Positions 31,941-56,925 of a stretch of DNA of 64,000 nt are shown here, in pieces. Within the stretch, counting starts at the first letter, position 1. Every line of letters begins with the position of its first letter. The notes under the pieces are model-generated. The model saw nothing but the letters and a program-made list of their open reading frames with translations. It was not told the DNA's origin and did not search any database. The stretch comes from Escherichia phage LAMP. The stretch is taken from sequence record MG673519.1; one strand, 5' to 3'. The position numbers and the translations under genes were made by a program.

Positions 31941-32422
31941 TTAGTGTGTATGCATCCAGTTTAACCCAATCTGACAATCAGAAGCCAGAGGACATTCCAT
32001 GTTCAAGTACTCACCAGCCTTCTTAACACAAAGCTCGGTGTACTCTTTGAGTTTCTGTACATCATTACGGTTCACTGAGAACTGGCCCTCATCGTGCATA
32101 TCAATTACCTTAGCACAACGAACTCCATCTTTCTCAATCCACTTGTTAAGGAACATCATAGCATATTTCATAACAACAGCACCAGCACATTGTAGGAGTG
32201 TGTTAAGGGCTTTATGAACCATAACCTTACCAGTGGCATCCCGTCTCATTGTAATCTTACGACCATCAACGCCAATCAAATACCCTTGAGCAGCTTTCTC
32301 TGTCATACGATCAATGAGGATTGCAATACAAGGATTCTCTGCCAAGAAGCGTGCTCGCATCACTGAACCTTCGTCAGCTCCACCACCTACGATTGAACCA
32401 AGCTTAGCATCACCTGCCCCAT
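31941..32422 (-). CDS. DNA polymerase (family A, T7 gp5-like), exon 2
   Basis: Frame open upstream of the annotated Met and encodes GAGDAKLG (motif B continuation); contains motif C VIDMHDE. Confidence 0.8.
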
Positions 32423-32726
32423 CAATAGTTCAAGCAAAGGCGCTACTCTTTGCTCCGTTCTCTTATGAACTGCTTACAGTTTCCTGTAAGATCGGACTAT
32501 ATCTTCATCTCCACCTTTACGTGCTGAGAGACAGGCGCTTCCGTAACACTTGTTACGTACTCCCTTCCGGGATAGTCTCTGAACTTTCCGTGACACAAAC
32601 TTTTCTACATAGATCATTGATGTTTATGTCACGGCTTAGCTGCTGATTGGCATATCTTTCGACTTAGCTTTCCAGCAATTCACCTGTTTTGCTTCTGCAC
32701 ATTTCTATGCAGTGAACCAATTATTT
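32423..32726 (-). mobile_element. group I intron (about 304 nt, no ORF) interrupting the DNA polymerase gene
   Basis: Exon 1 stops one codon after TFIYAFN; joining 32727 to 32422 restores NYGAGDAKLG; 5' exon ends in U, intron ends in G, GGUU near intron 5' end can pair with exon AACU. Confidence 0.7.
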
Positions 32727-34089
32727 AGTTAAAGGCATATATAAACGTCTTCGCATTATCACGAGTAGGAAGACCAGCAAGTTTCTGGTTGTGGGAGTGG
32801 ATATCACCTTCAAGAAGGATATCACGATACATAATAGCAGAAGCTAAACCACGTTCTGCCAGAGCTTTCTTAGCTGGATTATTCTCTTCGATTGCTTCAG
32901 CAAGCATATCCCTACACTCTTTAATGAGGTAGTGAGCGAGCATACGAAGTTCAAGTCCAGAACCATCATACCCTAAGAATACTTCTTTACCAGCGGGTAT
33001 GTAATATTTGTAAGCACCTACAGGCTTATCTTTCTTCCCCGGCTTACCTTTCTCGTAAATTACGTTAGTACCTTTTCGTATATAACAACCATCAGGAACA
33101 ACGTTAGTAATAACGAAAGGACGAGAGTGATCACTGTCTGAATTATAGTCAGACTCAAACAAACTGCGACACTCATGACCAAACAAACCACGGGAGGGAA
33201 TATTAACCACGATACGATGTTTGAATCGAAAAGTTGGCGTAGCGCAGCTGTTAGCTTCTGCCGAAAGTTTACCATCTTCGCGTTCCTTTGCTATGAGTCC
33301 ACTGATAAGACCTAGCCTGTGAGCCGCTACAACGCGCCTCTTAAGCAAACTTCCAACACTCCCTAGCTCGCCCCCTAACCCTTCTTCAAGAGTCTCCTCG
33401 AGGTTTGTAGGAGCTGTAGGCCACTTGTTTGAGGTAGCTAGTGCTATCTTAATCTCATCAAACGTGATAGGTCTACGTCGGTTAGGGTTTAAACCTAAAC
33501 CAAACACATAAGCCTTCATATAGTTCTTAGTCTTAAACCTAAAATGCTTCTCTAAGAACCTCCTAATATCTGCGTCAACCATCTCGGCTGTCTGCTTCTG
33601 TTTAGCATTACCTCGCATCCAAGCTGAATACCACGCTTGGTATGTTCCATACTTTCGTATATCTTTCTTGATTTCAAAAGTATTCCAAGGTTTCTTTGAT
33701 ACGTTAAACTCTGGAGGAAGAAAACCCTCATCCATAAGGGCTTCTTTAACTCGTGCATCTTTCGATGGGTCAAAGTCCACGTATTCAACACAGGTGAATG
33801 CTCCACCAATGTCTTCTCTCTTAAGGCCAACTCTATCACAATAGGCTTGAGGCCACTTCTGTAAAGCTCCAGACTTCTTAAATGGCTTCATATAAGTAGA
33901 GCCATCTAGTCTCATCTTAGGTAAGAGAGGGATCAGTTCTTTGTCGATATTAACAATAATCTCTTTAAGGAGGTGAACATACCACCGAGCATTTCTTCGG
34001 TTGAAACTCACTCCGTGCTTCGCTTGCTTAGAGATTATATCAGCGACAGTCATCTCTGTCAAAAATGGGAGAGCGTCCGGGTTGCTCAC
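32727..34089 (-). CDS. DNA polymerase (family A, T7 gp5-like), exon 1 (polymerase domain)
   Basis: Motif A GYDGSGLELRMLAH and motif B RDNAKTFIYAFN; colinear with T7 DNA polymerase from the end of its exonuclease domain. Confidence 0.85.
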
Positions 34090-36736: not shown

Positions 36737-37093
36737 TCACACTGGTTGATTGCTCTTGTTAGTGCCCACACTTTCATTATTCTTCTCTTTATGAAGTCTA
36801 TAAACAGCTGTCGCCATGCAAGCAACAGCTTCATTGTGTGGGAGATGCATCCCTGTAGAACCATCCCAATCTTTGAACTCATTGTCAAAGACTCCAGTAG
36901 GTTCTGGATATAGAGCTTGCAACTCAACCAAATCATTAGCAACTTGTTGCCATTTATCATCAGACCAGATAGGGTCATCCAACCAGTAATACAAATAGGA
37001 ATGGATGATCAATTGCCTTCTGTGCCGATTAATTACTTCAGCGGGACTTATCTCACTTCCATTTGAAGTCCTAAATGTATTACTGTCAATCAT
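36737..37093 (-). CDS. small protein resembling NAD-dependent DNA ligase domain Ia
   Basis: RHRRQLIIHSYLYYWLDDPIWSDDKWQQVANDLVELQALYPE parallels the LigA N-terminal [31 protein letters not shown] segment. Confidence 0.35.
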   Translation of the reverse strand: MIDSNTFRTSNGSEISPAEVINRHRRQLIIHSYLYYWLDDPIWSDDKWQQVANDLVELQALYPEPTGVFDNEFKDWDGSTGMHLPHNEAVACMATAVYRLHKEKNNESVGTNKSNQPV

Positions 37094-37095
37094 GA

Positions 37096-37752
37096 TTAAT
37101 TATTCCAAGTAGTTGATAAGGCTTTCCAAGAGATAGGATAAAGTTTCTTCATTTCTTCATCAATAGTTTGTGCAAACAGTCGGACCTCATACTGAGCGTG
37201 CTCTGACAGACGTTGACGGCACACATCTGACCAGCCATATAGAGAGCCAGTCCACACCCACTCAGTGATCATCCCCTGAGGAAGAACAAATCGAGCTTGC
37301 TCTGGTGCAACAAATTCAATCAACTTATCATATGCTGCTAGAGAGGATTCATATGCATCGTTAATCAGCATTAATGCTTCAGCTCGTTCTCCATCGATGA
37401 GTTGAATCCCTGAACCTGCATGGAGGTCCGAAGGTCTCGCAAAAATCTCTTTAGGGATGAAGACTTCAACTGCTCCATCTTTATACCGACGGGACATTTC
37501 GTTCCACGAGAATCCAACCTGATGCTTGCCCAGCTGTCTCGCAATTGCGATAGGTGCTTTGCATCGGAAACTAACTTGTGGATGTCGGAATGGAGTAACA
37601 TGCTTTTCTCTTGCGAGGAAGTTGATGAGACGTTCATCACGTTCATTTAAATCACCTTCACGGGTTACGCCAAAGGAAACTCGAGCTGCGTTTACTACGC
37701 TACGATCACTTCCCATAGCTTCGATTAATGTTGCTTGTAGTTGTTCATTCAT
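37096..37752 (-). CDS. thyX: flavin-dependent thymidylate synthase
   Basis: AARVSFG, TPFRH, KAPIAIARQ and SWNEMSRRY match ThyX signature regions. Confidence 0.8.
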   Translation of the reverse strand: MNEQLQATLIEAMGSDRSVVNAARVSFGVTREGDLNERDERLINFLAREKHVTPFRHPQVSFRCKAPIAIARQLGKHQVGFSWNEMSRRYKDGAVEVFIPKEIFARPSDLHAGSGIQLIDGERAEALMLINDAYESSLAAYDKLIEFVAPEQARFVLPQGMITEWVWTGSLYGWSDVCRQRLSEHAQYEVRLFAQTIDEEMKKLYPISWKALSTTWNN

Positions 37753-38231: not shown

Positions 38232-38289
38232 ATATTCATATCCTTATAAAGAGAAAACCCCGTCTATTCCTAGACAGGGCTTGAGTTTT

Positions 38290-38853
38290 TTAGTAAGACA
38301 CATCACCACTTGAGTGGGACATGTTGCTCTTGACGAAGTAGCAATACTTGCCAAGACCTTCATTGATTTCTTGAAGCATACTTTGATCGACTGGATAAGT
38401 GGCTAAATCGCCATCAAACTCATCCATCTTCTCAATAATACACATCAAGGTCATGCACATATCAGAGAGCATACCGTCCATGTCTAGATCAGCGTTACCC
38501 TCTGAGAACCAAGCATGAGAGAGGTAGTTAGCTGCTGTAGCATCCACTTTAACACAGTGGTAACGCATACGTTCAGCAATACGATCTCCTACTTGTCGTG
38601 CGTAATCTTCCAGCTCGTCAAACATACCATGAACACCCTGAAATCCTGCACCAGAGACGTTCCAGTGGTAGTTTTTAGCTTTGATGTGCAAGAGTTCCAT
38701 ATTAGCTTGTAAGCAGCTCAGGATGTGTTCTAGGCTGTTTCCGCTAATCATGCCTTGCATTGTTTCAAGGCGAGAGATTGAAAGCTCAGACCGGTCTAAC
38801 ATGCTGTAGCTGTCACGACCAATCTCAGGTAAATCAAAGACATTCTTATGCAT
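38290..38853 (-). CDS. Dps-like ferritin-fold protein
   Basis: NYHWNVSGAGFQGVHGMFDEL...DRIAERM and C-terminal YFVKSN resemble Dps family. Confidence 0.6.
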   Translation of the reverse strand: MHKNVFDLPEIGRDSYSMLDRSELSISRLETMQGMISGNSLEHILSCLQANMELLHIKAKNYHWNVSGAGFQGVHGMFDELEDYARQVGDRIAERMRYHCVKVDATAANYLSHAWFSEGNADLDMDGMLSDMCMTLMCIIEKMDEFDGDLATYPVDQSMLQEINEGLGKYCYFVKSNMSHSSGDVSY

Positions 38854-39175
38854 TTGGGTTTTCTCCATCAAGTTCAACTGAGTTAGCAACGTTACGTGCA
38901 ATATTGTCCATTACCTGCTGGGTAATTACGATGCAGTTCTGTGGGTCTACTGACTTAGAACGCCCCATTTCTGGGTCATACACCTTAACACGCTTAGCAG
39001 TTGAACCTGTAACCTGAAGAACCTTCAACAGATATCCCTGATTACCGATAGACCAAGCAACAACATCACGATTCTTGATAAAGCGACCAAGCATATCACG
39101 ATGATAAAACTGTTGCATCACCTTGGATTTTGTAATCTCTTCAGTGGGCGGGGCCACTTTACTCAAATCTAACAT
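38846..39175 (-). CDS. hypothetical protein
   Basis: 109-aa ORF; TATACATTT promoter-like motif 40 nt upstream. Confidence 0.4.
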   Translation of the reverse strand: MLDLSKVAPPTEEITKSKVMQQFYHRDMLGRFIKNRDVVAWSIGNQGYLLKVLQVTGSTAKRVKVYDPEMGRSKSVDPQNCIVITQQVMDNIARNVANSVELDGENPNA

Positions 39176-50181: not shown

Positions 50182-50795
50182 AACGAATCCACCAACGTAA
50201 TATTATAATTGCTAAGATTTTCAGAGATGTGATGAAAATATTCCAGAAGTCGCATCGGTTGCTGACCATAAGAGTCACGAGATGCTTCCAGATCTACTTG
50301 TCCTACCAGTGCACCTTTATAATGCACTTTACCATCTGTAGGGTTGATGTAAATGTAACGAGTGACCAATCCATCAAACTCTGGATTGAACAAACTGTAA
50401 ACCATCTCCCCAGAGATAGAACGACCAATCCCAGGAGCATTTCGAATCTTATTACCCATTAAACCCTTTGCTCTCTGACGAACAGGGTTAATATGAGTCC
50501 AGCTCACAGTGTTACCGTTATGGAACAGATAACCAACATCAGGTGATTCAAGAATCAAGGTTGGGTCGAACACTGGAATATTCATCACAATGTTTCGAAG
50601 ATTCCCATGCTCGTTCTTGTACCACTGCTCTACAACAAAATACAGAGCCTGCTCTGCTTCGTGAGAGAAGTCATCGCTGCGGAAGTTACCGCTCTGCTCA
50701 ACACCAATCACAAAACATGGAAGGTTGATATTACCTGCTCGTTTAGCAATCCATGTACCGTTATAGTAATGAGAAAAATCAGATACTAAGCTCAC
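50178..50795 (-). CDS. hypothetical protein
   Basis: 205-aa ORF, start and stop overlap neighbours. Confidence 0.4.
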   Translation of the reverse strand: MSLVSDFSHYYNGTWIAKRAGNINLPCFVIGVEQSGNFRSDDFSHEAEQALYFVVEQWYKNEHGNLRNIVMNIPVFDPTLILESPDVGYLFHNGNTVSWTHINPVRQRAKGLMGNKIRNAPGIGRSISGEMVYSLFNPEFDGLVTRYIYINPTDGKVHYKGALVGQVDLEASRDSYGQQPMRLLEYFHHISENLSNYNITLVDSL

Positions 50796-50804
50796 GATAA
50801 CCTC

Positions 50805-51611
50805 TTATGCTACCTGAAGGCGTTTAATCTGCTGGTCCGCTTCTTTAACGTTATTACCGTTAATGATTTCATGAAGCTTCTCAATCGGAAGGCGAGAGTG
50901 CAATGCCATCAGAGTGGACATGTCACACTGCTGAACAACCTTGTCAACCTGATCATAAACAAACTTACGGTTTTCACGATCACTAATCCAGAAGTTAGAC
51001 AGGGAACGATATTCAATACCATAGTCCTTGTAGCGGATTGCAGATGCTTTACCGTAGAGTTCTTTACGGCGAGTGTCTTTATCCATAATAACTGCTGGGA
51101 GGGATAGGAAGTAGTCACACAGCACACCCAGCATCATCTGAGTTTGCAGGGTGATATCCAAAGCACCAACTACGCCAAGATGTACGTGACCACCGGCAGT
51201 ACGAAGCCCCTTATTTTGAGAAGTCGGGGATGGGTTCTTCTGACCAGTGAAAGCGTTGAAATCAGGAGTACATCCAAAGATGAACGCTGATTCATTGAAA
51301 GTCTTCATCTCTTCTTCAGTGAAGATGTGAGAGCTAACACCCGGAGCTGTTTCCATGTCCAGTTTGTTCAGGACATTATTGGTGAGATCGATACCACGTT
51401 GCATGTTGTCATTAAACGCTTCAAAACCGCTCTGTGGGTCAATATCAAACTCAGCCAGTACGTTGTCCTCTTGAAGACGAACATCCTTAGCCAGAGCGAT
51501 CTTATCGTCCTTAGAACAACCTAACAGACCAGCTACAGAGGTGATGATTCCTTTGCTGGTACGAACGAACATTTCCGGATCCGATCCTATTAAGAATTTG
51601 CGCTTAGTCAT
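50805..51611 (-). CDS. hypothetical protein, possibly second amidoligase-like enzyme
   Basis: GSDPEMFV and GGHVHLG motifs loosely parallel the neighbouring amidoligase. Confidence 0.35.
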   Translation of the reverse strand: MTKRKFLIGSDPEMFVRTSKGIITSVAGLLGCSKDDKIALAKDVRLQEDNVLAEFDIDPQSGFEAFNDNMQRGIDLTNNVLNKLDMETAPGVSSHIFTEEEMKTFNESAFIFGCTPDFNAFTGQKNPSPTSQNKGLRTAGGHVHLGVVGALDITLQTQMMLGVLCDYFLSLPAVIMDKDTRRKELYGKASAIRYKDYGIEYRSLSNFWISDRENRKFVYDQVDKVVQQCDMSTLMALHSRLPIEKLHEIINGNNVKEADQQIKRLQVA

Positions 51612-56849: not shown

Positions 56850-56925
56850 TGGTGCGCCCTACAGGATTTGAACCTGTAACCAATAGCTTAGAAGGCTACT
56901 GCTCTATCCATTGAGCTAAGAGCGC
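56850..56925 (-). tRNA. tRNA-Arg(UCU): tRNA-Arg, anticodon UCU, CCA encoded
   Basis: Hand-folded cloverleaf: 7-bp acceptor stem, D-arm GCTC/GAGC, anticodon loop CTTCTAA, 5-nt variable loop, T-arm ACAGG-TTCAAAT-CCTGT, discriminator A, CCA. Confidence 0.9.

Follow-up and report, generated by a model that had tools for sequence, protein, structure and literature searches.

Escherichia phage LAMP encodes a stand-alone protein of 118 amino acids that belongs to the solo Nlig-Ia family, is homologous to the N-terminal domain Ia of the bacterial NAD+-dependent DNA ligase LigA, and cannot ligate DNA. Its gene (positions 36737..37093, minus strand, stop codon included) lies in the window, i.e., the whole stretch of 64,000 nucleotides that was analysed, and was defined on basis of the ORF list, a match to Pfam family PF22745, identity to ECBP2_0056, and dN/dS; it is the equivalent of Bas92_0047 and ECBP2_0056. 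The protein is a typical and routine member of an already described family, published in 2022. Sequence and structural modelling give good confidence that this small helical domain keeps the LigA domain Ia hairpin together with the NMN-holding residues, and that NAD+, NMN, or a closely related compound is its probable ligand. The best explanation as a whole, namely a non-catalytic stand-alone nicotinamide-nucleotide-binding domain Ia that is linked to the replisome, is given an even chance of being correct.

The solo Nlig-Ia domain was detected by computation in 81 phages by Iyer, Burroughs, Anantharaman & Aravind (2022; Viruses 14:1977; PMC9503650, section 3.5.1), who presented ECBP2_0056 as its exemplar, noted that the ligand-binding residues are conserved, and proposed that the proteins "likely function as NAD+ sensors" or "shield NAD+" from NADase effectors. 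Of these 81 phages, one has a separate catalytic module of a ligase and 80 have none (PMC9503650). Many ligase-less phages carry the Nlig-Ia domain. No experimental study of the family was found in the literature searched. The terminal peptides, the clamp and clamp-loader contexts, and the helicase fusion that are described below are not in Iyer et al. 2022, and the words 'clamp' and 'DnaN' are absent from its text (PMC9503650); these features provide a basis for separating the soluble-sensor idea from a replisome-linked role. Moreover, databases routinely mislabel the domain as 'DNA ligase', and recognition of a putative non-catalytic NAD+/NMN-binding module would correct such annotations. 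An established function would join NAD+-depleting anti-phage immunity and the dependence of phages on host replication enzymes.

Family assignment and predicted structure

The ORF at 36737..37093 has an ATG start and comprises 118 codons plus the stop codon. A preliminary description of this DNA quoted a peptide corresponding to residues 23-64 of the protein, and the resemblance to LigA domain Ia that it proposed greatly exceeds chance expectation and is borne out by profile, structure, and genome context. The protein matched PF22745 ("Nlig-Ia: DNA ligase-like, N-terminal NAD+-binding domain", which shares its family name with Iyer et al. 2022) with E=2.5e-35 and 121.4 bits, above the curated cutoff of 27 bits, over residues 16-103 and essentially the full model (positions 1-91 of 92), and it matched PHROG 6466 with E=4e-43. 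Searches of PDB sequences with the single sequence gave marginal matches to LigA N-termini (E about 0.08), and a profile of 119 homologs, used for the profile search against LigA domain Ia that had been suggested as a check, detected E. coli LigA (5tt5, 4glx, 2owo) at E=5e-4 to 1.6e-3, with LigA residues 3-53 aligned. Pfam families of ligase adenylation and OB-fold domains gave zero matches to the 118-aa protein even at E<=10. LigA identity, as implied by the GenBank label 'DNA ligase' on many phage copies, was therefore rejected, since there is no KxDG NTase, no OB, and the LigA alignment ends at approximately residue 53; 118 amino acids are too short for NTase plus OB domains, which makes the label a misnomer.

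The AlphaFold2 model obtained with the 119-sequence alignment (mean pLDDT 86.8, pTM 0.76) contains helices at residues 17-36, 45-61, 70-73, and 88-109. The first 21 PDB matches of this model in Foldseek were all LigA, with probabilities of 0.80-1.00 (at least 0.98 in 19 of the 21), and a predicted helical hairpin of 47-48 residues superposed on LigA domain Ia at 0.6-0.9 Å, e.g., in 1dgs and 5tt5; structure prediction and superposition had been suggested as a further check. Owing to the shortness of the shared unit, the Foldseek E-values of these matches are poor (>=0.17). The correspondence with LigA is limited to the first half of the protein, whereas residues ~65-110 are specific for the solo family.

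Three elements can be distinguished on the minus strand. The first is the two-helix hairpin (residues 17-61, positions 36911..37045), which is the homolog of LigA domain Ia according to the AlphaFold2 helices, Foldseek, and the profile alignment, and which contains the putative nicotinamide-nucleotide site. The second is a conserved block, F73-x2-W76-x-G78-S-T-G-M-H83-L-P85 (residues 70-85, positions 36839..36886), in which F73, W76, G78, T80, G81, H83, L84, and P85 do not vary among the 119 closest homologs; the block is not covered by the Foldseek and profile alignments with LigA, and has no sequence-detectable LigA counterpart. Distant members keep only the T-G-x-x-L-P core, with variation of M82 and H83 (GNTGMGLP in Dp-1, SSTGYDLP in Arthrobacter phage Cassia), and this variation makes a catalytic role of His83 unlikely. 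The third is a solo-family-specific C-terminal helix (residues 88-109, positions 36767..36832), recognized by AlphaFold2 secondary structure and pLDDT. It is followed by a tail (residues 110-118) that is poorly conserved and has low pLDDT. Separately, a sub-threshold match to Imm41, a Pfam immunity protein of polymorphic toxins, was observed for the hairpin only (residues 32-67, E=3.5e-4, 21 bits against a cutoff of 26.9 bits), and the homolog P0010 displays an Imm41 match as well.

Conservation of the nicotinamide-nucleotide pocket

Profile alignment of the solo family with E. coli LigA placed R25, H31, Y33, and L34 at LigA R12, H18, Y20, and L21, respectively; Y35, Y36, D39, and P41 at Y22, H23, D26, and P28; and D45, W48, and Q49 at D32, Y35, and D36. 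Sriskanda and Shuman reportedly found in 2002 that LigA Y22, H23, D32, Y35, and D36 are required for the reaction with NAD+. Of the five LigA NMN-site positions, four are retained or conservatively substituted in the 118-aa protein (Y35, Y36, D45, and W48), and Asp36 is replaced by Q49; all five residues are invariant among the 119 homologs. A tyrosine at the position of LigA His23 also occurs in Thermus LigA. Among 197 alignable representatives, the first two pocket positions are Tyr in all 197 and the third is Asp in 196, while the fourth and fifth are Trp-Gln in 168 and a LigA-like aromatic-Asp pair (WD, FD, or YD) in 16. As judged from these alignments, the aromatic sandwich and the equivalent of Asp32 are kept, and Asp36 is systematically Gln.

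The NAD+ pocket of LigA is built jointly by domain Ia and the NTase domain, with the nicotinamide stacked on a tyrosine pair (PMC7470946). Binding of NAD+ or NMN by the 118-aa protein would be consistent with the conserved pocket residues, and the kept aromatic pair (Y35, W48) together with Asp45 makes it probable. The replacements of Asp36 by Gln and of Tyr35 by Trp suggest that the ligand or the affinity may differ from that of LigA.

Distribution and purifying selection

The gene evolves under purifying selection (dN/dS about 0.1). The dN/dS ratio was 0.11 in comparison with ECBP2_0056 (76% amino-acid identity) and 0.17 in comparison with a metagenomic relative (61% identity), with dS close to saturation in both comparisons. 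A 99-aa ORF that overlaps the gene in another frame was rejected as spurious.

An exhaustive profile search retrieved 1,123 clusters (50% identity) at E<=1e-3, of which 638 at E<=1e-10; all but five of the best 150 of these 1,123 clusters encode 60-190 amino acids, and those five encode 213-318. A word-indexed search retrieved 140 clusters, with lengths of 69-189 amino acids among the 120 matches listed. By tblastn with a homolog, the gene was found in the genomes of 192 cultured phages of widely differing types, including phages of Escherichia (87), Arthrobacter (60), and Rhodococcus (10), Erwinia jumbo phages (15), phages of Clostridium, Streptococcus, Salmonella, and Shigella, and one match each in Bacillus and Enterococcus phages. 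In bacterial genomes the solo domain is almost absent, with 7 loci in 185,579 species; the three that were examined encode solo proteins and the other four match the hairpin region only.

These data refute the suggestion in the preliminary description that the ORF could be a relic of a degraded full-length ligase, and likewise a chance ORF; the probability left to either is practically nil. The truncated architecture is the sole point in favor of a relic, and it is opposed by purifying selection, the spread over phages, family lengths that are mostly 60-190 amino acids, 17 invariant columns among the 119 homologs, the family-specific second motif and helix that are absent from LigA, and flanking DNA that contains no ligase remnants. 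Purifying selection and membership in a phage family with no fewer than 1,100 sequence clusters thus establish that the gene is not a relic.

Genome context and absence of a phage ligase

The window spans about 64 of the roughly 68 kb of a phiEco32-like Escherichia phage, and is 97% identical to JacquesWildberger_Bas92, in which the Nlig-Ia gene (Bas92_0047) is annotated as 'DNA ligase', and ~94% identical to many phiEco32-like (Gordonclarkvirinae) phages. The gene is part of a minus-strand early/middle module with the order dCTP deaminase, ferritin-like protein, thioredoxin, ThyX, Nlig-Ia, two small ORFs, PhoH, and DNA polymerase. The stop codon of the upstream neighbor thyX (37096..37752, minus strand; ORF coordinates and the thymidylate synthase annotation in Bas92) is located 2 nt before the Nlig-Ia ATG, a spacing that suggests that both genes are probably co-transcribed and translationally coupled. 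A terminator-like hairpin with a 12-bp stem and a T-rich tail (38255..38282, minus strand), detected by a consensus scan only, probably represents the upstream end of a thioredoxin-ThyX-Nlig-Ia-PhoH transcription unit. Synteny of DCD, ferritin, Trx, ThyX, Nlig-Ia, and PhoH is kept in the 61%-identical relative (L011, 10296-10763). ThyX uses NAD(P)H, and a functional link with ThyX was considered and rejected as a general clue, because the adjacency is confined to the phiEco32-like lineage and is absent in the contexts of large uncultured phages and of lambdoid, Arthrobacter, Bacillus, Clostridium, and Streptococcus phages.

Several other features of the genome were noted. The ferritin/Dps-like protein encoded at 38290-38901 on the minus strand (PF00210, E=2.9e-7) is labelled 'DNA binding protein' in Bas92, and its gene lies beside thioredoxin and ThyX in the distant relative as well. 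A group I intron at 32473-32736, minus strand (Rfam RF00028, 100.8 bits, E=6e-25) splits the gene for the family-A DNA polymerase into the ORFs 32725-34089 and 31941-32363; the corresponding Bas92 gene is contiguous (1,845 nt). A homing endonuclease ORF of 173 amino acids with HNH_3 and AP2-like domains (43895-44416, minus strand), situated between the genes for primase-helicase and gamma-glutamyl cyclotransferase, looks like a mobile insertion, since Bas92 has just a 204-nt ORF at this position. Genes for an ATP-grasp (RimK-like) protein, glutamine amidotransferase, Amidoligase_2, and COOH-NH2 ligase (45329-51611, minus strand) form a cluster that is typical of phiEco32-like phages. Finally, a tRNA gene is located at 56853-56925 on the minus strand (Rfam, 73.6 bits), to which an annotated tRNA-Arg corresponds in Bas92.

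When 38 window ORFs, comprising the main non-structural genes and several small ORFs, were scanned against Pfam and PHROG, no ligase module was detected, and these scans did find PolA pieces, an exonuclease subunit, primase-helicase, 5'-3' exonuclease, ATP-grasp, and amidoligase enzymes, among others. Moreover, the annotation of the Bas92 genome, which is 97% identical, lists no full-length ligase. The two small ORFs that precede PhoH have no Pfam match, which agrees with the earlier reading that no adenylation domain follows, and the reading of the product as stand-alone also held: it is a phage-encoded, single-domain protein of 118 amino acids that has no catalytic domain on the same polypeptide.

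The possibility that a separate Ia subunit pairs in trans with a phage-encoded, Ia-less adenylyltransferase, together constituting a split phage ligase, would find its precedent in the single phage, among the 81 of Iyer et al. 2022 (PMC9503650), that has a separate catalytic module of a ligase besides the solo domain. Neither the scanned window ORFs nor the Bas92 annotation yielded a ligase-type NTase. The sole 'nucleotidyltransferase' (phrog_12715; 472 amino acids; 40001-41419, minus strand), which is encoded between dCTP deaminase and the PolA exonuclease subunit and has no Pfam match and no PDB sequence match, was rejected as a hidden ligase: in sequence it carries a pol-beta-type (CCA-adding or poly(A)-polymerase-like) GGAIRD...DIDIF signature instead of a ligase signature. 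For this phage the split-ligase reading is largely refuted and is considered highly improbable.

As no phage ligase was found, the phage, which has lagging-strand machinery, must by implication depend on host LigA for the sealing of its Okazaki fragments. This dependence bears on the possibility that the protein is a decoy inhibitor that contributes to host shut-off, in which free domain Ia would displace the Ia domain of LigA itself from the LigA NTase domain or compete for the clamp, thereby blocking adenylylation and leaving host DNA nicked. The predicted structural equivalence of the hairpin to LigA domain Ia would suit a decoy, and clamp-binding-type tails such as those of homologs (see below) would position it where LigA works. 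However, the phage encodes a primase-helicase, PolA, and a 5'-3' exonuclease without a ligase, its own lagging strand therefore depends on host LigA, and conservation of ligand-binding residues would be unnecessary for a purely steric decoy. A decoy role is therefore judged very unlikely.

Clamp-type terminal peptides and replisome contexts of homologs

The beta-clamp-binding motif is QL(S/D)LF or QLxLF and is usually C-terminal, and the clamp of E. coli makes contact with ligase and accelerates ligation (PMC4549789, PMC9690074). QxxLF constitutes the exact C-terminus of 26 of 265 representatives of the solo Nlig-Ia family, and 39 of the 265 end in LF (mean 0.72 and maximum 5 in 2,000 shuffles of the tails). 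Among the first 120 homologs, 19 end exactly in Q-[MALGS]-[SGAC]-L-F. Grouped at 70% core identity, the QxxLF forms give at least 6 clusters, and in these forms the pentapeptide is conserved while the Pro/Ala-rich linker of 8-79 amino acids is not. Moreover, LF occurs within the first 8 residues of 21 of the 265 representatives, versus 3.2 expected (MALF, MSLF, MKQRSLF, and similar), and is then followed by a Lys-rich linker. Five of the 265 have LF at both ends, and 57, about a fifth, at either end, on a linker of low complexity. QGSLF is the C-terminus of a prophage copy in Janthinobacterium and QMALF that of one in Massilia, and loci included in the terminal-LF observation, which is based on the sequence of the termini, are L018 (5992-6333) and L019 (5980-6426). 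The window protein has no QxxLF or other clamp-binding motif in its tail, which ends in ...NKSNQPV, and tails are unconserved within the phiEco32-like group. Its N-terminal NTF, which aligns with NLF/ELF of relatives, was rejected as a clamp motif since it is modelled as folded.

Gene contexts of several homologs also point to replication, and homologs in Firmicute phages are located between clamp and clamp-loader genes of the phage. In Streptococcus phage Dp-1, gp16 (L012, 3812-4225) is part of a replisome operon with the order dnaN, recB-like, recU, gp13, dUTPase, recA, gp16, and the clamp-loader genes gp17-19. The annotated N-terminal extension of gp16 contains M-Q-K-S-L-F followed by a basic linker; the annotated start is probably too far upstream, and the internal Met would give MQKSLFG.... 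In Clostridium phage phiCTP1, gp60 is located between dnaN and Pol III subunit genes, and in Arthrobacter phage Cassia the homolog comes after DNA Pol I. In a lambdoid prophage, the QMALF-tailed form is encoded in the early-left operon, with a 3'-5' exonuclease gene one ORF downstream. On a large uncultured phage contig, in contrast, the homolog is found among small early genes. Furthermore, gp102 of Rhodococcus phage ReqiPoco6 (541 amino acids; L013, 3917-5542), labelled 'DNA ligase' in GenBank, combines Nlig-Ia (residues 16-101, E=1e-32) with an SF2 DNA helicase (phrog_62, E=9e-66). Ten longer homologs contained no second Pfam domain, and two metagenomic proteins, P0180 (290 amino acids) and P0194 (315 amino acids), are fusions of Nlig-Ia with a phrog_13900 'minor head protein'-like region (E=7.5e-24 and 1.4e-14, respectively), which does not fit a replisome role. 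The only interaction datum comes from a Dp-1 yeast two-hybrid screen, in which the orf16 product pairs with RuvB and not with LigA or DnaN; RuvB was a recurrent prey of this screen, shared by several phage proteins.

The observations on homologs are relevant to the proposal, published by Iyer et al. 2022 for exactly this solo family (PMC9503650), that the protein is a soluble sensor or shield, which would bind free cytoplasmic NAD+ and either report to the phage the firing of host NADase defence effectors or protect a pool of NAD+ from them, with no direct link to replication or LigA. The conserved pocket residues and the missing clamp motif of the window protein are in line with this proposal, as are the lineage-variable neighborhoods, which are expected of an accessory counter-defence gene, and a weak Macro-domain (ADP-ribose-binding) gene that lies 2 kb downstream in the 61%-identical relative and has no equivalent in the window. 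However, the output that a sensor would require is not apparent in a single-domain protein of 118 amino acids, while a shield that works stoichiometrically could protect the abundant cellular NAD+ only at very high expression. Moreover, domain Ia by itself holds just the NMN half of NAD+, and the QxxLF/LF peptides, the helicase fusion, and the clamp-loader operon positions are left unexplained. Altogether, a free sensor or shield is considered possible, albeit rather unlikely, and the tails, operons, and fusion of the homologs favor a role that is physically tied to the replisome over a free-floating sensor.

Proposed role

The replisome-linked explanation proposes a site of action at the replication fork or in its vicinity, where the protein would handle a nicotinamide nucleotide; this part of the explanation is put forward tentatively, at somewhat below an even chance. 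The protein would be expressed alongside the nucleotide-metabolism and replication genes of the phage, and would work at or near a fork at which host LigA seals the Okazaki fragments of the phage. Near LigA, it might sense, buffer, or hand over the nicotinamide nucleotide; capture of the NMN product, which otherwise reverses LigA adenylylation, would be one example, and keeping LigA charged under NAD+ scarcity another. Modulation of host LigA, an option raised in the preliminary description, would gain indirect support from the clamp-binding-type motifs and the replisome-gene contexts of homologs. Involvement of host LigA, the one enzyme of replication that uses up NAD+ and gives off NMN, is likely by this reasoning, and it is plausible that local NMN capture or NAD+ delivery would keep LigA adenylylated at low NAD+. 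The link with the fork would be physical in many homologs, through clamp-binding-type peptides, a helicase fusion, or a clamp/clamp-loader operon, and is inferred for the window protein.

Several observations count against the replisome-linked explanation. The AMP half of NAD+ is held in LigA by the NTase domain, which the solo protein does not have, and the non-Q 'xLF' termini are non-canonical clamp motifs. Neighborhoods differ by lineage (ThyX/PhoH, small early genes, or the lambdoid early-left operon), and this variation, together with the missing clamp motif of the window protein, the unconserved tails, the two 'minor head protein'-like fusions, and the RuvB datum, weakens the extrapolation to the window protein. 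A more specific version, in which solo Nlig-Ia proteins are replisome-attached handlers that stay beside LigA at lagging-strand nicks, tethered in many phages by the terminal clamp-binding peptides, and that keep LigA adenylylated when defences drain NAD+, through either NMN trapping or NAD+ delivery, is speculative and unlikely to be correct as it stands. If true, it would represent a new kind of counter-defence, guarding one essential NAD+-consuming step instead of the whole NAD+ pool.

Comparison with known systems

Compared to LigA domain Ia (E. coli LigA ~1-69; 5tt5, 4glx, 1dgs, 1ta8), the hairpin of the window protein overlays at 0.6-0.9 Å, and equivalents of R12, H18, Y20, L21, Y22, D26, P28, D32, and L42 are present, while Tyr35 is replaced by Trp and the position is thereby still aromatic. 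Unlike LigA, the solo protein lacks fused NTase, OB, Zn-finger, HhH, and BRCT domains as well as the catalytic lysine, and residues 65-110 add a loop (F..W.GSTGMHLP) and a long additional helix, both specific for the family.

Compared to beta-clamp clients with a QL(S/D)LF peptide (Pol II, Pol IV, UmuC, Hda, and IS transposases), the tails of the 26 QxxLF-ending representatives have Q-x-x-L-F after a disordered-looking Pro/Ala- or Lys-rich linker. Hda carries its clamp motif at the N-terminal end, and QKSLF of Dp-1 gp16 is located near that same end. In contrast, the window protein is without such a peptide, and many homolog termini are just 'xLF' without the Gln.

The nearest described system is ECBP2_0056, which belongs to the same family and phage group, is 76% identical, and occupies the same genomic position, i.e., the thyX-phoH interval in both phages. 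It is the positional ortholog of the window gene, and neither genome contains a ligase module. The unconserved C-terminal tail of the window protein is 12 residues longer, and in ECBP2 an extra 159-aa ORF separates thyX from the Nlig-Ia gene; otherwise there is no substantial difference between the two.
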